Assembly: GCA_947626015.1 (NCBI GenBank)
Contig: CANQQK010000003.1
Location: forward strand, 1 to 32,431
Length of the DNA: 32,431 nt
DNA from: an uncultured Bacilli bacterium
GTDB lineage: Bacteria; Bacillota_I; Bacilli_A; RF39; UBA660
Direction: 5' to 3'
A model generated the notes under the pieces. That model saw only the letters and a list, made by a program, of their open reading frames with translations. It ran no database searches and was not told the DNA's origin. The translations under genes and the position numbers were made by a program. Position 1 is the first letter of the stretch. Every line of letters starts with the position of its first letter. Positions 1,773-27,653 of the stretch are shown in pieces.

Positions 1773-1784
1773 GAACCTTGTAAA

Positions 1785-1991
1785 GCAATTGATGAAGACG
1801 TCAAATATGGGATTTTATAGAGAAACTGTGGTTGGTGGAAACAGGGAAATGAAGATATTTGAAGATCACTTCGGATGCGATTTAGGGATAATCTAAATAC
1901 GTTACTCGCGTTAAGAGAATAAGTGCATGAATAAATCATGAATTAAGGTGGTACCACGGAAATATCCGTCCTTTAATTTATGATTTTTTTT
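1785..1991 (+). ncRNA. T-box riboswitch, Ile specifier (AUC)
   Basis: Stem I has an AGAGA bulge (1819-1823), GGTGGAA loop and specifier ATC (1865-1867). Stem IIA/B CTC-GCGTTAA-GAG. Stem III CATGA/TCATG. T-box AAGGTGGTACCACGG with antiterminator AAGG-TGGTACC-ACGG/CCGT-CCTT. U-tract 1984-1991. Confidence 0.93.
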
Positions 1992-2014: not shown

Positions 2015-5000
2015 ATGAAAAATTTTAAAGAATTAGATCGTCGTAGTGTTCATGAAGTTGAAAGTTCGATCTTAGATGAATGGAAGAAGATGAATATCCT
2101 TGATATGACCATTAAAAATCGTGATGGTAAAAAAGATTGGGTATTCTATGATGGACCAATATATGCTAATGCTAAACCAGGAATCCATCATGTTTTAGCT
2201 AAAGCTATTAAGGATTCTTTTTGTAAATATAAAACGATGCAAGGTTATCGTGTTTTAAGAAAGATTGGTCTTGATACTCATGGCCTACCAATTGAAGTTA
2301 ATGTTGAAAAGAAACTAGGCTTTAAGACGAAAGCTGATATCGAAGCTTTCGGTATTGAAAATTTCTGTAAGGAATGTAATAAAGCAACCGCATTAAATAT
2401 CGATGAAATAAATTTAGTTACAGATATGATGGGACAATTTATCGATTGTGATCATCCTTATGTAACTTGTAGTAATGAATTTATTGAATCTGAATGGTGG
2501 ATTTTAAAAGAAATGGATAAAAAGGGAGTCTTATATCATGGTGATAAAGTATTACCTTATTGTCCTCGTTGTGGTACGGAATTATCTGCTAATGAAGTAT
2601 CTCAAGGTTATGAAAATGTTTCTGTAAATACGGTTATTGTTCCTTTTAAGAGAGTTGATAGTGATGAATATTTCTTAGTATGGACAACAACTCCTTGGAC
2701 ATTACTTGCTAATGTAGCAATCTGTGTTAATCCTAATATGACCTATGTTAAAGTAGAATCTATGGGTTATAAATTTATTATTGCTGAATCTTTAGCTAAC
2801 AAAGTATTAGGTGATGAATTTAAAGTCTTAGATACGTTTGTTGGTACGGATTTAGTTGGTATAAAATATGAACAATTATTACCTTTTGTTAAGGTTGAAG
2901 GTAAAGCATTTGAGGTTATAGCTGATGATTATGTTACTGCTGAAGATGGTACGGGTATTGTTCATATTGCTCCAGCATATGGTGTTGATGATAATCGTGT
3001 ATGTGCTGAAAATGGTATTGCTTTTGTTAATCCAGTTGGTAAGGACGGATGTTATACTGAAGGACCTTGGAAGGGTACATTAGTTACCTCTCCGGACTTA
3101 GAGTTAGATATCATCAAATACTTAAAGGAAAATGATAAATTATTTAAGAAGATTAAGATGAACCATGATTACCCACATTGTTGGCGTTGTCATTCTCCAC
3201 TAATCTATTTCACTAAACCTGCTTGGTATATTAGAACAACCCAATATAAGAAAGAGATTATTGAAGCTAATAAGAGTGTTAATTGGTATCCAGAATTCGT
3301 AGGTACTAAAAGATTCAATAACTGGCTTGAAAATATGGTTGACTGGGGTATCAGTCGTAACCGTTATTGGGGTTGCCCAATGCCTATTTGGATCTGTGAT
3401 GATTGTGGTGAAAAACATGTTATTGGTTCAATAAAAGAATTACAAGATATGTTGATCGAAGATGTTGATGTATCAAAGATGGAATTACATCGTCCATATG
3501 TTGATGATCTTCATCTAAAATGTCCACATTGTAATGGTCGTATGACAAGAGTAATCGATGTAATGGATGTATGGTTCGATTCTGGTGCTATGCCATATGC
3601 TTCCTTCCATTATCCATTTGAAAATAAAGAATTGTTTGAAAGTCAATTCCCAGCTGATTTCATTGCTGAAGGAGTCGATCAAACGCGTGGTTGGTTCAAT
3701 GCTTTAATCTGTATATCAACAATTATTTCTGGTAAATCAAGTTTTAAAAATGTTGTTGTAAATGATATGGTCTTGGATGCTAATGGTAAGAAGATGAGTA
3801 AATCAACAGGTAATGTTGTTGATCCAACCGTTGCTTTAACGCAATATGGTGCTGATAATGTTAGATGGTATATGTTCTATGCCTCTCCGGTATGGACACC
3901 ACTTAAATATGATGAAGCTGGTGTTAAAGAAGTTCATTCTAAATTCTTTAACCCATTTAAGAATACTTATTCATTCTTCCAAATGTATGCTAATATCGAT
4001 CATATCGATATCGATGATTGTAAGGTACCTTACGCTAAACGTGAAGAAATCGATAAATGGTTATTGAGTAAGTATCATAAACTACTAAAGAATGTTACGG
4101 ATGCTTATGAAAAATATGATTTAAATGAAGTCGTTAAACTTATAACTTCATTCGTATCTGAAGATTTATCTAATTGGTATATTCGTCGTAATCGTAATCG
4201 TTTCTGGGCTAGTACTTTAGATAATTCTAAGAAGTCTGTTTATATGACAACCTATGAAGTATTAGTTGGTCTATGTAAGATGTGTGCCCCAATTATTCCA
4301 TATACTACCGAAGAGATATATCGTAATTTAACGGGTGAAAAATCAGTTCATCTTGCTGACTTCCCTAAATATGATAAGAAACTTATCAATGAAGAAGTTG
4401 AAGTTCGTATGGACTTAGTAAGAGATTTAATCTCTACAGGTCGTTATGTTCGTGAAGAAACTAAGATTAAAGTTCGTCAACCAATTGCTGAATGTTTAAT
4501 CGATGGTAAATATGAAAGCATTTTAGGTGACTTAGTAAATCTAATCAAAGAGGAATTAAATGTTAAAAAAGTAACCTATGTTGATGATTTATCTAAGTAT
4601 ATGAACTTTACGATTAAACCTAACTTTAAGATTTGTGGTGCTATCTTAGGATCAAAGATGAAGGAATATCAAAATGCTTTATTAGATCTAAGTAATGAAG
4701 ATATTGAATCAATATTAAAAGAAGAAACGATAACGATCGATTTCGATGGAGGAAGATTAGATATAACTCCTGATATGGTTGATGTTCGTATTGAATCTAA
4801 AGAAGGATTTAATGTTGGTATGGAGAATAATAAATTCATTATTCTTAATACCGAATTAACTCGTGATTTAATCCTTGAAGGATTAGCTAGAGAATTTGTA
4901 TCTAAGGTCCAAAATATGCGTAAGACTTCCGGATTTGAAATTGCTGATCGTATTAAACTTTATTATCAAGGTGATGATGAAGTATTAGAAGCTTTAGATA

Positions 5001-5116
5001 GCTTTAAAGACTATGTCAAAGATGAAACCCTTGCTACTACTTATGAAGTTAAAGATGGTGGGGAAGTCGTTGATATCAATGGTCATGAAGTTAAAGTAAG
5101 TATTGAAAAAGAATAG
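2015..5116 (+). CDS. ileS: Isoleucine--tRNA ligase, type 2 (IleRS2) with GIHH signature
   Basis: DGP..AN..PGIHH, WTTTPWTL editing motif, DWGISRNRYWG (type 2), KMSKS, 1033 aa with type-2 C-terminus. Ile T-box upstream. Confidence 0.97.
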   Translation: MKNFKELDRRSVHEVESSILDEWKKMNILDMTIKNRDGKKDWVFYDGPIYANAKPGIHHVLAKAIKDSFCKYKTMQGYRVLRKIGLDTHGLPIEVNVEKKLGFKTKADIEAFGIENFCKECNKATALNIDEINLVTDMMGQFIDCDHPYVTCSNEFIESEWWILKEMDKKGVLYHGDKVLPYCPRCGTELSANEVSQGYENVSVNTVIVPFKRVDSDEYFLVWTTTPWTLLANVAICVNPNMTYVKVESMGYKFIIAESLANKVLGDEFKVLDTFVGTDLVGIKYEQLLPFVKVEGKAFEVIADDYVTAEDGTGIVHIAPAYGVDDNRVCAENGIAFVNPVGKDGCYTEGPWKGTLVTSPDLELDIIKYLKENDKLFKKIKMNHDYPHCWRCHSPLIYFTKPAWYIRTTQYKKEIIEANKSVNWYPEFVGTKRFNNWLENMVDWGISRNRYWGCPMPIWICDDCGEKHVIGSIKELQDMLIEDVDVSKMELHRPYVDDLHLKCPHCNGRMTRVIDVMDVWFDSGAMPYASFHYPFENKELFESQFPADFIAEGVDQTRGWFNALICISTIISGKSSFKNVVVNDMVLDANGKKMSKSTGNVVDPTVALTQYGADNVRWYMFYASPVWTPLKYDEAGVKEVHSKFFNPFKNTYSFFQMYANIDHIDIDDCKVPYAKREEIDKWLLSKYHKLLKNVTDAYEKYDLNEVVKLITSFVSEDLSNWYIRRNRNRFWASTLDNSKKSVYMTTYEVLVGLCKMCAPIIPYTTEEIYRNLTGEKSVHLADFPKYDKKLINEEVEVRMDLVRDLISTGRYVREETKIKVRQPIAECLIDGKYESILGDLVNLIKEELNVKKVTYVDDLSKYMNFTIKPNFKICGAILGSKMKEYQNALLDLSNEDIESILKEETITIDFDGGRLDITPDMVDVRIESKEGFNVGMENNKFIILNTELTRDLILEGLAREFVSKVQNMRKTSGFEIADRIKLYYQGDDEVLEALDSFKDYVKDETLATTYEVKDGGEVVDINGHEVKVSIEKE

Positions 5117-22513: not shown

Positions 22514-23947
22514 ATGAAGACAAAGAAAAAAAATAAATTCTTCGACAAACATCAAGTTTTTAAAGTAGTAGGAATATTTATGATTGTTGCTGCTTTACTT
22601 ACTTGGGTGATGGAAATTGGTCTTTACCAAGGTGGTGAATTTGTTAATGATGAGATGTATCGTGTAGGTTTATCTGATTTCTTAACATATTCAATGTTTG
22701 GTAATTATTATTTTCCAACCCACTTTATAATATTAGTCGTTACTGCTGGATTCTATATGTTCTTAGGATCATTACCAGCATATCAAAAGTTAACGGATAA
22801 TATTGCTAGAAAGTTTAGCAATCATCCAGCTATCTTTGCTATCATAACGATGGTTTTATTAGCTGCCTTTGCTGGTGTAGCAACTGATTATTTTGCTGCT
22901 ATTGCTTTGATACCTTTCTTCATTACTGTTTTGAGTAAGTTAAAGGTTGATAAAGTAGTAGGTGTTGCATCAACATTTGGTGCTACCTTGATTGGTATTC
23001 TAGGAGCTTCATATTCTGGTAAGGTCGTTGGTGAACTTGCTAAGACCACGACAGAATATGGTTTAGGTATCAAATATGGATATCTACCATGGCCAATATT
23101 TATTATATTTGCTGTTAGTTTATTGCTACTAGGATACTTCATCTTTAGAAGATGTCGTAAGGGTTGCGATGAAAAGGATGTCCTTAATGATCTATTTGCT
23201 AAGGAAGCTGTTGAAGGTAGACCTAAGAAAAATGCCAAGAAAGTTAGTACACTTCCACTTGCTATTGTTTTAGGATTACTTGCTTTAAATATCGTTTTAG
23301 GTGTTATTGCTTGGGAAAGCGTATTCAATATTACGGTATTTAAAGATCTATTCACAAATATTACAACCGCTACCTTATTTGGTGAACCAATCTTCCAATA
23401 TATCATTGGTAATGTTATGACGGAATTTGGTACATGGGATCTATTGACGATATCTCTAGTAATGATGATAACGATGTTAATTATTAAGATCGTATACTCT
23501 GTACCATTCGATAAATTAATCGATGAGTTTGTTGAAGGATTCAAGAGAATTGTTCCAACTGTAGGGATCTTATTGATGATCTTTGCTATCATTCTTTATT
23601 CCGGTGCTTACCCAACTATTGGTAATTTCATTCATAGTATTTTATCAATGGGAACGGAAAAACTATATGTCTTTGTTTGTGGAATCGTTAATGGCGTATT
23701 CTCACCAGACTTTAGTTATTCATTACGTTATACGGGTTCAGCATTTACTTCAATGAGTAATCTTGATAATGTAGCATTAGCATTACAAACTGGTAATGGA
23801 TTTGCATCTTTGATTGCTCCTTCTAGTATGATGTTAATGGTTGGACTTTCAATGTTGAAAGTTAAATATACGGAATGGTTCAAATTTATTTGGAAATTCC
23901 TAATACTAGTAGCAGTATTATTAATTGCTGTCTTATTGGTAATATAG
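22514..23947 (+). CDS. YfcC/DcuC-like (ion transporter superfamily) membrane transporter
   Basis: About 12 hydrophobic segments. C-terminal 'ALQTGNGFASLIAPSS...L...KV.Y.EW.KFIWK' resembles YfcC. Confidence 0.7.
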   Translation: MKTKKKNKFFDKHQVFKVVGIFMIVAALLTWVMEIGLYQGGEFVNDEMYRVGLSDFLTYSMFGNYYFPTHFIILVVTAGFYMFLGSLPAYQKLTDNIARKFSNHPAIFAIITMVLLAAFAGVATDYFAAIALIPFFITVLSKLKVDKVVGVASTFGATLIGILGASYSGKVVGELAKTTTEYGLGIKYGYLPWPIFIIFAVSLLLLGYFIFRRCRKGCDEKDVLNDLFAKEAVEGRPKKNAKKVSTLPLAIVLGLLALNIVLGVIAWESVFNITVFKDLFTNITTATLFGEPIFQYIIGNVMTEFGTWDLLTISLVMMITMLIIKIVYSVPFDKLIDEFVEGFKRIVPTVGILLMIFAIILYSGAYPTIGNFIHSILSMGTEKLYVFVCGIVNGVFSPDFSYSLRYTGSAFTSMSNLDNVALALQTGNGFASLIAPSSMMLMVGLSMLKVKYTEWFKFIWKFLILVAVLLIAVLLVI

Positions 23948-23971
23948 AAAACTTGCTTAGCAAGTTTTTTT
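23948..23971 (+). terminator. Intrinsic terminator
   Basis: AAAACTTGC-TTA-GCAAGTTTT followed by Ts. Confidence 0.85.
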
Positions 23972-23972
23972 G

Positions 23973-24001
23973 TTGACTAAAGAAATATTTCGTTATAAAA
24001 T
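23973..24001 (+). promoter_or_regulatory. sigma-A promoter of pheST leader
   Basis: TTGACT, 17 bp spacer, TAAAAT. Confidence 0.75.
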
Positions 24002-24009
24002 ATGTTCAG

Positions 24010-24217
24010 TGATACGGAGATAATGTACTTAGTAAAGATATGATGTATCTATTAGAGAAGGAATATCAAAGGCTGAAAGTATTCCAGATTAAATCATATT
24101 TTGAATTTCATACATAGGAGTATCAATCGTGTAATCGCGTTAAGATAATAAGTGCATGTAAGTCATGAACTAAGGTGGTACCACGGGAATACCCGTCCTT
24201 AGATTCATGGCTTTTTT
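24010..24217 (+). ncRNA. T-box riboswitch, Phe specifier (UUC)
   Basis: Stem I has AGTA/GAA loop E, AGAGA bulge, GGCTGAAA loop and specifier TTC (24107-24109). IIA/B ATC-GCGTTAA-GAT. Stem III CATG/CATG. Antiterminator CTAAGG-TGGTACC-ACGGG/CCCGT-CCTTAG. U-tract 24212-24217. Confidence 0.94.
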
Positions 24218-24237
24218 ATGTTAGAAAGAGGGATATT

Positions 24238-25287
24238 ATGCAAGAATTAGCGGATACAATAAAGACGGATTTATTAAAAGAGATTAAAGATATCGATAAA
24301 GAACAAGATTTAGTAGAATTAAAAGCTAAATATATTGGTAAATCAGGTAGAATTACTGAATTAACGAAGAATATGCGTGATCTTTCGGTTGATGAAAGAA
24401 AAGAGGTTGGTTTAATCTCTAATAAGTTAAAGGAAGAAGCTACGAAGATCATTGAAGATAAGGAAAAAGAGATTCATGATCGTATTCTTAATGAGAAGTT
24501 AAGTAAGGAAGTTATCGATATCAGTTTACCTGCTACTAAGGTTTGTAATGGTGCTCCTAATATCTTAGAGAAGGTTATTGAAGAGGTTGAAGAAACATTT
24601 ATGTCTATGGGATATGATGTTGTTGATGGACCAGAAATTGAAGAGGATAAGTATAACTTTGAGTTATTAAATATTCCTAAGGGACATGCAGCTAGAGATG
24701 CTCAAGATACCTTCTATATTGAAGGCGATGAGATCTTGCTTCGCAGTCAAACATCACCAGTTCAAGTTCGTACGATGCTTAAATATCAAGGTAAGGAACC
24801 AATTCGTATGATATGTCCTGGTAAGACCTATCGTCGTGATGATGATGATGCTACTCACTCACATCAATTCATGCAAATCGAAGGGTTGCTTGTCGATAAG
24901 GATATCTCCTTATGTGATCTAAAGGGAACCTTTGATACGATTGCTAAGAAGTTGTTTGGTCCAGATTGTGTAACACGTTTCCGTCCATCTTATTATCAAT
25001 TTACAGAACCAAGTGTTGAAACCGATATCTCATGTTTTGCTTGTCATGGTAAGGGTTGTGCCCTTTGTAAAAATACCGGATGGATTACCATTAGTGGTGC
25101 CGGTATGGTACATCCAAATGTTTTAAAAAATTGTGGTTATGATCCTAAAGAGTGGAGTGGTTTTGCTTTCGGTTTTGGTGCTGAAAGATGTGCGATGCTT
25201 AAATATGGTATCGATGATATCAGAACATTCTATAATACGGATTTAAGAGAATTAGGGGCTTTTGATCGAAAGGATGGTGAGCAATAA
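24238..25287 (+). CDS. pheS: Phenylalanine--tRNA ligase alpha subunit
   Basis: Start ATG 24238 after AGAGGG. H.ARD.QDTF, LRSQTS, D.THS.QF.Q.EG, FRPSYYQFTEPS, GFAFGFG.ER and CxxC..GC..C insert. Confidence 0.97.
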   Translation: MQELADTIKTDLLKEIKDIDKEQDLVELKAKYIGKSGRITELTKNMRDLSVDERKEVGLISNKLKEEATKIIEDKEKEIHDRILNEKLSKEVIDISLPATKVCNGAPNILEKVIEEVEETFMSMGYDVVDGPEIEEDKYNFELLNIPKGHAARDAQDTFYIEGDEILLRSQTSPVQVRTMLKYQGKEPIRMICPGKTYRRDDDDATHSHQFMQIEGLLVDKDISLCDLKGTFDTIAKKLFGPDCVTRFRPSYYQFTEPSVETDISCFACHGKGCALCKNTGWITISGAGMVHPNVLKNCGYDPKEWSGFAFGFGAERCAMLKYGIDDIRTFYNTDLRELGAFDRKDGEQ

Positions 25288-27653
25288 TGATAAGTTTAAA
25301 TTGGGTTAAAGATTATGTCGATCTTGAAGGTGAAGATTTAAAAGAACTTGCGGTTAAAGTAACCAAGGGTGGTTTAAATGTTGAAGGCGTTATTACGAAC
25401 CATATCGATAATTTGGTCATTGGTAAGATCGTAGAATGTTATCCACATCCGGATAGTGATCACTTAAATATCTGTAAGGTTGATGATGGTAAAGGTATTC
25501 GTCAAATCGTTTGTGGTGCAAGCAATGTTCGTGAAGGTTTAAAGGTTATTGTTGCTTTGCCAGGAGCTATTTTACCAGGCAATGTTGAGATTAAGGCCGG
25601 TAAGATTCGTAATCAAGAATCTAATGGTATGATCTGTGCAATGTTTGAATTAGGTTTGGAAGAGAAGACTGAAGAAACCTATGCTAAAGGTATTACGGAA
25701 CTTGATGATGATGCTCCAATTGGTCAAGACCCACTTGCATATTTAGGTCTTGATGATACGATCTATGATTTAGATAATCATAAACGTCGTAATAATGATG
25801 TTTATTATCATATTGGTTTTGCTTATGAAGTTGCAACGGTTTTAAATAAAAAGGTTAAATTACCAGAAGCTAACTATAAGGAGATTAAAGATAATATTAA
25901 AGATCATTTTAAATTAGATGTTAAAACTCCTAAATGTCCATTCTATATGGCGAAGATGGTTAAAAATGTTAAGGTTGGACCATCTCCAGAATTCATGCAA
26001 AAACGTCTTAAGAGTGCCGGCATGCGTTCAATTAATAATGTTGTTGATATCTCTAACTATGTAATGTTGGAATATGGTCAACCAATGCATTTCTTCGATT
26101 ATGATTCCCTAGGTGGACATGTCTTAGTAAGGGATGCTTTAGAAAATGAAGAGATTATCACTCTTGATGGTAAGACACGTACTTTAACAAGCAATGATAT
26201 CGTTATTACTGATGGTAAGAAACCAGTATGTATCGCTGGGGTTATGGGTGGTGAAAATACCGAAGTAGAAGATACTACAACAACCATCCTTATCGAATCC
26301 GCTATCTTTGATTCTGTATCGATTCGTAATACCGCTAATCGCTTAGATCTAAAGAGTGAAGCATCTATTCGTTATGGTAAAGGTTTAAACTATGAATATA
26401 CGATTGCGGCTATGAATCGTGCTTGCTATCTTCTTGAAAAATATGCTGGTGGTGAAGTATTATCAGGAGAAGTCTTACATGATAAGGTTGATAAGACCTC
26501 TAAGGAACTTGACTTTGTTGGTGATGAAATCAATAAGTTACTAGGAATCAAGATCAGTGATGATGATATTAAAGTAGAACTTGAAAGATTAGATTTCCCT
26601 TATACATATAATAAGGGAACTTTCCATGTTATAATTCCTAATCGTCGTTTAGATGTCGAACCTAATATCAATGATATTGCGGAAGAGATTGGACGTTTCT
26701 ATGGTTATGAGAATTTGGTTTCAACCATTCCTCGTGTACCAATTAGAAGAGGTGAGTATGCACCTGATGTTAAGATTAGAAAAGAGATTTCTAAAAGACT
26801 TCGTACTTTAGGTTTAAATGAAGTTAAAACCTATACTTTAACTAGTCCAGAGATGGCATCAACATTCAAATATGATAATATGGAAAGTATCGTTTTACCA
26901 AAACCAATGAGTGTTGATAAATCCGTTATTAGAACATCAATCTTACCTTCACTACTTAATACATATAACTATAATAAAGCACGTAAGGTTAATGATGTAA
27001 TGATCTACGAGATTGCTAAAACCTATGATAAGGATTATAGTGAAACGATGAAATGTGCTATCTTGATGAAAGGTAATTATATAACGACTAGTTGGTCAAA
27101 TAATACACTTAAATGTGATTTCTATTTGATTAAAGGAATCATTGAAAATGTCTTTGATTTCTTAGGATTTAAAAATCGTTATGAATTCGTTGTTGAAAAA
27201 GATGTTAAGGAATTACATCCAGGTATTGCTGCACGTATCTTATTGGATCGTGAACCAATTGGTATTATTGGTCATCTTCATCCATCCCTATTAAAGGATG
27301 ATATCTATGTTGCTGAATTTGCTATCAATCCATTGATGGCTAAGGTTAAACCAATTAAGTTTAAAGATGCTAATAAATATCCAGAGATGGAAAAAGATGT
27401 TGCTTTCATCGTTGATAATGAAGTAACGAATAAAGAATTAGAAGCTGCTATTAAGAAGAGTGGTGGAAGATTACTTGCTAATATTGAAATCTTTGATATC
27501 TATCGTGATATCGAAGAAGGTAAGAAATCAATGGCTTATAAATTAACATTTAAAGATGATTCTAGAACCCTTTCTGATGAAGAGGTTATGAATGTCTTCA
27601 ATAAGATTATCGATGAAGTATGTCAAAAGATGAATGCTAAGTTAAGAGGATAA
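25287..27653 (+). CDS. pheT: Phenylalanine--tRNA ligase beta subunit
   Basis: HPDSD.L, QIVCGA.N, INNVVDISNYVMLEYGQPMH, R.D......D..EE and C-terminal anticodon-binding domain. Confidence 0.97.
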   Translation: MISLNWVKDYVDLEGEDLKELAVKVTKGGLNVEGVITNHIDNLVIGKIVECYPHPDSDHLNICKVDDGKGIRQIVCGASNVREGLKVIVALPGAILPGNVEIKAGKIRNQESNGMICAMFELGLEEKTEETYAKGITELDDDAPIGQDPLAYLGLDDTIYDLDNHKRRNNDVYYHIGFAYEVATVLNKKVKLPEANYKEIKDNIKDHFKLDVKTPKCPFYMAKMVKNVKVGPSPEFMQKRLKSAGMRSINNVVDISNYVMLEYGQPMHFFDYDSLGGHVLVRDALENEEIITLDGKTRTLTSNDIVITDGKKPVCIAGVMGGENTEVEDTTTTILIESAIFDSVSIRNTANRLDLKSEASIRYGKGLNYEYTIAAMNRACYLLEKYAGGEVLSGEVLHDKVDKTSKELDFVGDEINKLLGIKISDDDIKVELERLDFPYTYNKGTFHVIIPNRRLDVEPNINDIAEEIGRFYGYENLVSTIPRVPIRRGEYAPDVKIRKEISKRLRTLGLNEVKTYTLTSPEMASTFKYDNMESIVLPKPMSVDKSVIRTSILPSLLNTYNYNKARKVNDVMIYEIAKTYDKDYSETMKCAILMKGNYITTSWSNNTLKCDFYLIKGIIENVFDFLGFKNRYEFVVEKDVKELHPGIAARILLDREPIGIIGHLHPSLLKDDIYVAEFAINPLMAKVKPIKFKDANKYPEMEKDVAFIVDNEVTNKELEAAIKKSGGRLLANIEIFDIYRDIEEGKKSMAYKLTFKDDSRTLSDEEVMNVFNKIIDEVCQKMNAKLRG

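Follow-up and report, generated by a model that had tools for sequence, protein, structure and literature searches.

A helix enclosing the antiterminator, with features of an intrinsic terminator, in the pheS T-box leader of an uncultured Bacilli bacterium

The subject of this report is the T-box leader that precedes pheS in a 32,431-nucleotide (nt) stretch of DNA from an uncultured Bacilli bacterium (contig CANQQK010000003.1 of assembly GCA_947626015.1), a stretch that is referred to in its entirety as the window. This leader is a T-box by its sensing parts and lacks the feature by which the canonical platform is defined, as the strand that leads into its U-tract pairs back to sequences upstream of the antiterminator and encloses the latter within a single long helix. 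We consider it probable, at roughly 0.6, that the leader acts on transcription as a T-box riboswitch whose platform departs from the canonical one, in which Stem III and an extension of antiterminator helix A1 would constitute the switch and the latching of an uncharged tRNA would block the extension. The direct support comes from the structures and energies of the folds, the conservation and covariation of the helix, the lack of a canonical terminator and the distribution of the design among related leaders. The parts of the leader are given below, where the ON fold is the one obtained with the strand after A1 held single-stranded (Stem III plus antiterminator) and the OFF fold is the one that contains the enclosing helix.

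24008-24203, plus strand: Phe T-box leader (RF00230, 78.7 bits)
24107-24109, plus strand: specifier UUC (Phe), located in the specifier loop of Stem I, with A24110 as the next nucleotide (Rfam alignment and sequence)
24150-24154, plus strand: AAGUG, the purine flank on the 5' side of Stem III, in agreement with RRRxG (sequence; motif as given in the available text of PMC7583486)
24155-24167, plus strand: Stem III, consisting of CAUG at 24155-24158, the loop UAAGU and CAUG at 24164-24167 (Rfam alignment; minimum free energy (MFE) structures of the nascent transcript and of the constrained fold)
24168-24169, plus strand: conserved AA 3' of Stem III, unpaired in the ON fold; in the OFF fold its partners are U24205 and U24204
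24170-24175, plus strand: 5' strand of antiterminator helix A1, CUAAGG (Rfam alignment, folds)
24176-24182, plus strand: T-box bulge UGGUACC, of which UGGU could pair with the tRNA 3' ACCA; unpaired in the ON and OFF folds
24183-24196, plus strand: antiterminator helix A2, ACGGG-AAUA-CCCGU, present in the ON and OFF folds
24197-24202, plus strand: 3' strand of A1, CCUUAG, which stays paired to 24170-24175 (Rfam alignment, folds)
24204-24213, plus strand: invading strand, UUCAUGGCUU, which pairs with 24160-24169 (the AA, the Stem III 3' strand and part of the Stem III loop), with A24203 bulged
24212-24217, plus strand: U6 tract of the predicted intrinsic terminator (sequence)

In the enclosing helix, nucleotides 24160-24175 (AAGUCAUGAACUAAGG) pair with 24197-24213 (CCUUAGAUUCAUGGCUU) to form 16 pairs, with A24203 bulged and a single G-U pair (U24163-G24210), and the first two residues of the U6 run pair with A24161 and A24160. 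This pairing, including its bulge, its G-U pair and the U6 that follows, had been proposed in an earlier sequence-only reading of the window; the coordinates, letters and pairs were all found to be correct, and the helix is the MFE structure that RNAfold returns for 24140-24220 (-26.0 kcal/mol). Two hundred dinucleotide shuffles of the same segment have a mean of -14.5 kcal/mol (standard deviation (sd) 2.5; z -4.51), and none of the 200 is as stable. A1 (24170-24175/24197-24202), the UGGUACC bulge and A2 (24183-24196) are kept inside the helix, while its lower stem, by which A1 is lengthened by 10 pairs, is made by 24204-24213 with the AA at 24168-24169, the Stem III 3' strand at 24164-24167 and part of the Stem III loop. 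In sequence and fold the leader possesses what characterizes an intrinsic terminator, a stable hairpin followed directly by a U-tract, here in the form of a 16-pair lower helix that encloses A2 and leads into U6. This is the sole hairpin adjoining the U-tract in the pheS leader, as its counterpart is the sole terminator-like structure in the ileS leader described below. The distance from the U-tract to the pheS ATG (24238) is 20 nt, and among the 33 leaders of enclosing design in which it was measured, the U-tract starts 9-14 nt past the A1 3' strand. Sequestration of the translation start was considered and dropped, since no predicted pairing touches the Shine-Dalgarno-like sequence at 24226-24233 and the U-tract comes after the helix.

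For comparison with other T-boxes, leaders were classified by where, with respect to the UGG bulge, the MFE structure places the partner of the last 10 nt ahead of the U-tract, with the end of the Rfam hit as anchor. The partner lies upstream of A1 in class E (enclosing), in the A1 5' strand plus the bulge in class B, and in A2 or the 3' strands in class C (canonical). In the canonical terminator, as described in the accessible portions of PMC7583486, a hairpin forms downstream whose 5' arm is supplied by the 3' strands of A1 and A2. No terminator built on these strands was found in the pheS leader, whose OFF MFE structure retains both A1 and A2. When folding was confined to the segment that begins with the A2 5' strand and ends at the U-tract, with a mark set at -10 kcal/mol, 98 of 113 canonical leaders reached the mark or did better (mean -13.8 kcal/mol) and none of 64 enclosing leaders did so (mean -4.0 kcal/mol), which bears out the earlier claim that a canonical terminator complement is missing.

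The match to Rfam model RF00230 covers model positions 1-219 at 24008-24203 on the plus strand (78.7 bits, E 1.4e-17) and falls short of the gathering score of 93 bits because the model positions of Stem II are deleted, so that the leader has no Stem II and an IIA-like hairpin, CGUGUAAUCGCG, is aligned at 24126-24150. Most T-boxes other than those for glycine possess Stem II and the IIA/B pseudoknot, and a natural loss of Stem II is explained for glycine T-boxes only in the available parts of PMC7583486. Despite the sub-threshold score, we file the leader as a Phe T-box on account of its E-value, its full-length match and its T-box features. The discriminator motif RRRxG-Stem III-AA is present as AAGUG-CAUG/UAAGU/CAUG-AA at 24150-24169, and A1, the 7-nt bulge and A2 are present as CUAAGG / UGGUACC / ACGGG-AAUA-CCCGU / CCUUAG at 24170-24202. 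The context of the specifier loop is GAA-U-UUC-A at 24103-24110, with a codon that fits pheS-pheT and a purine after the codon, and a tRNA-Phe(gaa) is encoded in the source genome.

The pairing of the enclosing helix is maintained through sequence change. In an ordinary MAFFT alignment of 62 enclosing leaders, 93.7% of the cells are paired, as compared to 78.0% in column shuffles (0/500 reach the observed value), and 199 cells have changes on both sides of the pair, versus 58.5 in the shuffles. Double changes occur in 15 of the 20 pairs of this alignment, and sliding the partner by 1-3 columns brings the pairing down to 41-49%. Up to four standard pair types are seen per extension column, as for example at columns 26-84 (AU 21, UA 19, GC 12 and CG 5), and RNAalifold predicts the extension unaided, with compensatory change in 15 of 18 pairs. 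Among 57 non-redundant leaders, the extension duplexes have energies of -7.2 kcal/mol for cognate strands, -3.2 for non-cognate strands and -2.7 when a leader's own 3' strand is shuffled. The AA after Stem III corresponds to invariant columns of the alignment and forms A-U pairs in 51 (columns 32-77) and 48 (columns 33-76) of the 62 leaders.

A second leader of the enclosing design is located in the window:

1780-1991, plus strand: ileS T-box leader of enclosing design (T-box 1780-1976, RF00230 116 bits; specifier AUC)

The gene downstream of this leader is identified as ileS by TIGR00392 (928 bits). The extension pairs 1933-1948 with 1970-1986, U8 lies at 1984-1991, and the fold of 1915-1995 has an energy of -20.0 kcal/mol (z -3.39), with 0/200 shuffles as stable. 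The contention of the sequence-only reading that ileS and pheS share the same enclosing terminator is thereby sustained, as are all four of the equivalent pairs that it had listed: U1943-A1976 and C24170-G24202, G1940-U1979 and G24167-C24206, U1936-A1983 and U24163-G24210, and A1935-U1984 and G24162-C24211. Two of these four equivalences are changed on both sides and two on one side. In the OFF fold of ileS (window 1945-1975), RNAfold moves A1 by one register, G1950 of the UGG bulge being paired with C1970 in preference to a structure with U1974 bulged; such a shift would leave the bulge that binds tRNA partly blocked in the terminator form.

The frequency of the design was determined in the source genome and its relatives. 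The source genome (1.15 Mb in 112 contigs, 87% complete) has 10 T-box matches, of which five are enclosing (ileS, pheS, metG, hisS and a HAD-IA hydrolase gene), two belong to class B (serS and proS) and three are canonical (valS, trpS and one at a contig end). For the 64 T-boxes of seven genomes of the genus, the output of the classifier was 32 enclosing, 17 class B and 15 canonical, which became 31, 17 and 16 when locus L105 was corrected. The U-tract pattern of L105 had begun within the 3' strand of its terminator; on refolding, the leader is canonical, and it was dropped from the alignment and energy sets. One genome from another family of the same order has no enclosing leaders, three of class B and three canonical ones out of 6, and six genomes from other families of the class have, out of 70, two enclosing (both in one 0.9-Mb genome), one class B, 64 canonical and three unclassified leaders with U4 only. 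One T-box of genome G016 was left out of the counts. We also surveyed the closest 80 PheS-encoding loci of a species-representative collection (66-79% identity; metagenome-assembled genomes of uncultured Bacilli, Tenericutes or Firmicutes). A T-box is found ahead of pheS at 71 of them, 33 enclosing, 32 canonical and 6 of class B (31/31/6 by the classifier, with 3 leaders that it left unresolved assigned by eye, two as enclosing and one as canonical).

A covariance model of the enclosing 3' domain, R1, was employed only as a prefilter for wider searches. Enclosing leaders mostly score at least 63 bits with this model and others at most 55, except that the canonical leader L149 scores 70.5 bits, for which reason R1 was rejected as a discriminator of classes. 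Within the order it matches, at E<=1e-9, 139 of the 151 genomes and 82 of the 87 genera, counts that are indicative only since R1 also matches L149. At E<=1e-12, matches were found in 7 of 137 genomes of the class outside the family, and all 8 of these matches fold as enclosing. A further search, aimed at the phylum, drew solely on genomes of this class and brought no additional cases. By these predicted folds, the enclosing design is the plurality within the family, is sporadic elsewhere in the Bacilli and is never the sole design.

When orthologues are grouped by clusters of the downstream proteins, the platform design is seen to go with the gene and to be heritable by gene within the genus. 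The enclosing design is present in 6/6 leaders of pheS, 6/6 of ileS, 7/7 of hisS, 3/3 of metG and 4/4 of the HAD-hydrolase gene. The design is class B for proS (3/3) and serS (2/2), canonical in three and class B in one of the valS leaders, and canonical in three trpS leaders plus the miscalled L105. In other families of the Bacilli the orthologues are mostly canonical (pheS, 4 canonical, 1 enclosing and 1 class B; metG, 6 canonical and 1 class B; hisS, 3 canonical; serS, 6 canonical). The proposal of the sequence-only reading that the helix is under selection and marks a lineage-wide T-box subclass is therefore partly supported. The helix is real, selected and frequent, being kept with compensatory changes and in every genus orthologue; it is gene-specific rather than lineage-wide (31/64 T-boxes), and it is not exclusive to the lineage, given the verified enclosing cases in 7/137 genomes of other families in the class. 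Canonical terminators coexist with it in the genus (16/64), which is in part what the reading had named as a refutation, and the core claim survives this co-occurrence because the back-pairing is conserved gene by gene.

Two observations on individual genes may be added here. The HAD-IA hydrolase gene (L010:1697-2323) lies downstream of a weak enclosing T-box (44.6 bits; contig C16:11928-12100 of genome G000, locus L010), and the arrangement of T-box and hydrolase gene is kept in all four genomes of the genus (4/4) in which the cluster occurs. In their 3' domains, the pheS leader (24150-24217) and the metG leader (G000 contig C27:3950-4036, locus L006) are near-identical, invading strand included, and they share the position of a bulge, which is an A in pheS and a G in metG. 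The near-identity suggests duplication of a leader followed by a change of specifier.

The energetic relation between the two folds was one of the comparisons that the earlier reading had called for. The extended helix of pheS, at -26.0 kcal/mol, is the more stable by far than Stem III plus antiterminator, at -13.0. The mean difference of OFF minus ON is -9.7 kcal/mol for class E (sd 3.0, n=64), -8.4 for class B (n=27) and -11.4 for class C (sd 3.3, n=113), and the gap of the enclosing leaders, being close to those of the other two classes, is thus of the size usual for T-boxes. In the MFE structures of nascent pheS RNA, Stem III and the antiterminator are present up to 24207 and the extended helix from 24211 onwards. 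The Stem III region is weaker in enclosing leaders (-2.8 kcal/mol) than in canonical ones (-4.7), the RRRxG-stem-AA motif is found in 57 of 64 enclosing leaders, and in the OFF fold of 63 of the 63 leaders with a detectable Stem III, the strand after A1 has the 3' strand of that stem as its partner.

These relations can be accommodated by a mechanism in which we infer termination at the U-tract, a dependence on tRNA and a step in which latch and toehold compete. A1, the UGGUACC bulge and A2 would be kept in both states, so that the antiterminator helix would not itself be the switching element. The mutually exclusive elements would be Stem III, with its purine flanks, and the downward extension of A1, because 24204-24213 pairs with the AA and the Stem III 3' strand. 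Stem III would form first during transcription. An uncharged tRNA would then engage the purine latch, by which Stem III would be held closed and the AA toehold removed; with the latch engaged, the invading strand could not zip down and RNA polymerase would pass the U-tract. With a charged tRNA, or none, the latch would be idle and the weak Stem III would be displaced by branch migration, whereupon the extended helix would be completed and transcription would stop ahead of pheS-pheT. In the portions of PMC7583486 at hand, binding of the tRNA 3' end is described as impossible to dispense with Stem III and the purines on either side of it, the 3' AA among them, and the purine string is said to latch last, onto the tRNA-bulge duplex after the helices have annealed. 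A model from small-angle X-ray scattering, as given in the available text of PMC5570125, has Stem III stacked on the proximal end of A1. The extension would occupy this same end of A1, together with the AA and the Stem III 3' strand, and it is on this basis that we propose that the tRNA latch blocks zipping.

Several considerations weigh against this mechanism. Stem III of the hisS type has only 3 base pairs, and 6 of 64 enclosing leaders have no hairpin in the Stem III region (-0.5 kcal/mol or weaker), which makes the proposed competitor marginal in these leaders. The stems are A+U-rich, a property that bears on the efficiency of a terminator. A simple terminator scan found 0 sites in 23800-24400, a result explained by its restriction to loops of 3-8 nt, since the scan is blind to a helix that encloses another hairpin. 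The bulge is open in the OFF fold, and a tRNA could in principle bind the terminator form, while the blocking of the extension by bound tRNA is a step that we infer. The percentage of paired cells is partly circular, because the leaders were chosen by an MFE-based classifier for the same helix, and the shuffle tests are inflated by kinship, as many of the leaders are related; the independent evidence lies in how frequent the design is, in how diverse its pair types are and in the fact that no other terminator is present. Finally, the case is built from sequences and predicted structures.

One alternative, which we regard as unlikely, is that the extended helix is the terminator and that tRNA prevents termination by some other route, such as the bulk of the tRNA-A1 stack at the polymerase or a slowing of folding, the displacement of Stem III being passive. 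Neither fold disrupts the bulge, A1 or A2, so that the contact site for tRNA is present regardless of Stem III, which in some leaders is very weak or absent, as in the 6/64 just mentioned. Against such a route, it is precisely the Stem III 3' strand that is taken up by the extension in 63/63 leaders, along with the conserved AA in about 80%. Furthermore, an antiterminator devoid of Stem III has no appreciable tRNA binding, according to the accessible text of PMC7583486, and that text and the available part of PMC5570125 place the stacking of the tRNA on the bulge side of A1 and not at the proximal end, where the extension grows.

It is less probable still that the helix acts after transcription, as a stabilizing 5' hairpin or a processing site, or that the leader is a decaying T-box with a leaky constitutive terminator in a reduced genome. 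The terminator role has been deduced from sequence and predicted folds, the genomes are small (0.6-2.0 Mb), and the pheS leader has neither a Stem II nor a score above the Rfam gathering level, all of which would suit such an explanation. It is opposed by the position of the U-tract, 9-14 nt past the A1 3' strand in 33 leaders, as in an intrinsic terminator; by the conservation of the T-box core, the specifier and the Stem III motif; by the essential nature of the aminoacyl-tRNA synthetase (aaRS) genes concerned and the recurrence of the same design in every genus orthologue examined; by a gap between OFF and ON that is in line with that of canonical T-boxes; and by the lack of any predicted pairing to the Shine-Dalgarno region.

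That the back-pairing arose by chance in A+U-rich, low-complexity sequence, or by recent duplication of leaders, with no selection, is very improbable: the leaders of the window have only about 35% G+C and the near-identical pheS and metG 3' domains imply some recent shared ancestry, but 0/200 shuffles are as stable, several extension columns show four or more standard pair types, the design persists in pheS leaders whose PheS proteins are only 66-79% identical, a slide of 1-3 columns cuts the pairing to 41-49%, and enclosing leaders have no other terminator. Compared with all three of these explanations, a switch between Stem III and the extension of A1 best explains why precisely the Stem III strand is reused and why no other terminator is present.

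The same lineage contains another departure from the canonical platform, class B, represented in the source genome by the following leaders:

G000 contig C1:110-303 (locus L004): class B serS leader (fold and Rfam alignment)
G000 contig C17:16211-16400 (locus L005): class B proS leader (fold and Rfam alignment)

In class B, the strand leading into the U-tract forms 13 (serS) or 11 (proS) pairs with the UGGUACC bulge and the 5' strand of A1, and this terminator strand would compete directly with the tRNA 3' end. The Rfam alignment replaces 19 (serS) or 17 (proS) model positions of Stem III by 1 nt, and these two leaders appear to lack Stem III, an element that the accessible text of PMC11404447 describes as present in all T-boxes identified so far. 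Class B accounts for 17/64 T-boxes of the genus, 3/6 in the other family of the order, 1/70 in other families of the Bacilli and 6/71 pheS leaders. It resembles the enclosing design in its compact layout, with the U-tract 8-16 nt past the A1 3' strand, in having no canonical terminator and in occurring in the same lineage, and differs from it in that the terminator 3' strand lies on the A1 5' strand plus the bulge and in that Stem III is missing from the Rfam alignment. With somewhat less than even confidence, we suggest that the enclosing leaders may be a widespread class among gut Bacilli with small genomes that reads tRNA charging solely through the Stem III purine latch, with the antiterminator present in ON and OFF states alike and the conserved AA as the trigger of the switch, and that a second class in the lineage, without Stem III, may oppose its terminator strand to the tRNA 3' end on the UGGN bulge.

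The enclosing design has much in common with canonical transcriptional T-boxes such as Bacillus subtilis tyrS and glyQS (RF00230), namely a Stem I specifier, a IIA/B-like element, RRRxG-Stem III-AA, A1/UGGNACC/A2, and a more stable alternative hairpin plus U-tract ahead of an aaRS operon. It differs in that both antiterminator helices are preserved, the terminator consists of a downward-lengthened A1 and Stem III is the element destroyed, and the pheS leader is additionally without Stem II. The translational T-boxes of Actinobacteria, exemplified by Mycobacterium tuberculosis ileS, share the discriminator architecture. The available text of PMC10907184 describes a pre-formed antisequestrator in that ileS leader, where charged tRNA dislodges a linker beside Stem III and thereby starts an alternative pairing, and, as a concept, this model resembles a switch set off at the Stem III latch. 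The M. tuberculosis type sequesters the Shine-Dalgarno sequence and has no U-tract, whereas in the pheS leader a U-tract follows the helix and the Shine-Dalgarno sequence is free in the predictions. Stem Sa of staphylococcal glyS and other variants, as far as described in the accessible parts of PMC9177973, PMC4574755 and PMC11404447, are likewise instances of lineage-restricted remodelling of the terminator/antiterminator domain. Stem Sa is an insertion, with terminator and antiterminator still sharing a strand in those descriptions, whereas the enclosing design has no insertion and the partner of the 3' strand has moved upstream of the antiterminator. Full-text searches found no terminator that encloses the antiterminator or uses Stem III, although the main comparative surveys and the supplements of TBDB lay outside their coverage and may contain an earlier mention; the available portions of PMC7583486, PMC5570125, PMC7778990, PMC2494555, PMC10907184 and PMC11404447 describe no such platform.

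T-boxes are the textbook RNA sensors of tRNA charging, and the mechanistic accounts, in the parts available, give a single logic for the platform, in which the terminator recaptures the 3' strand of the antiterminator. A conserved enclosing design would show that this logic is not obligatory, since the antiterminator would survive and Stem III would donate the strand; if so, the rule of a strand shared between terminator and antiterminator would be only one of at least three solutions. The leaders, as templates of about 210 nt with an invading strand of 10 nt, would be suited to the study of toehold-style strand displacement in co-transcriptional switching. Searches for canonical terminators, or the use of the RF00230 gathering threshold, would misjudge leaders of this kind when genomes are annotated. 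The group affected is a large one of uncultured gut bacteria with small genomes, in which roughly half of the aaRS T-boxes are predicted to be enclosing.

The surroundings of the pheS leader in the window are as follows:

23948-23971, plus strand: terminator-like hairpin, AAAACUUGC-UUA-GCAAGUUUU, and a run of U's, closing the upstream open reading frame (ORF) 22514-23947
23973-24001, plus strand: promoter-like site, TTGACT-17 nt-TAAAAT, a consensus match (10/12) located 7 nt ahead of the T-box match
24226-24233, plus strand: Shine-Dalgarno-like sequence, AAGAGGGA, 4 nt ahead of the ATG and outside all predicted alternative pairings
24238-25287, plus strand: pheS, phenylalanine--tRNA ligase alpha (TIGR00468, 322.5 bits; cut-off 237.45)
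25287-27653, plus strand: pheT, phenylalanine--tRNA ligase beta (TIGR00472, 776 bits; cut-off 402.65)

The hairpin at 23948-23971 appears to separate the pheS leader from upstream transcription. The mechanically assigned ORF of pheS starts at GTG 24175, inside the T-box bulge region of the leader, and ATG 24238 is the plausible start. The isoleucyl-tRNA synthetase (IleRS) encoded at 2015-5116 is a long form of 1033 amino acids that satisfies the general ileS model; its alignments to the NCBIfam models MupA (920 bits) and MupB (885 bits) run the full length, at scores far under their cut-offs of 1900 bits, and from its sequence we read it as probably of the type-2 kind, with no claim as to resistance.

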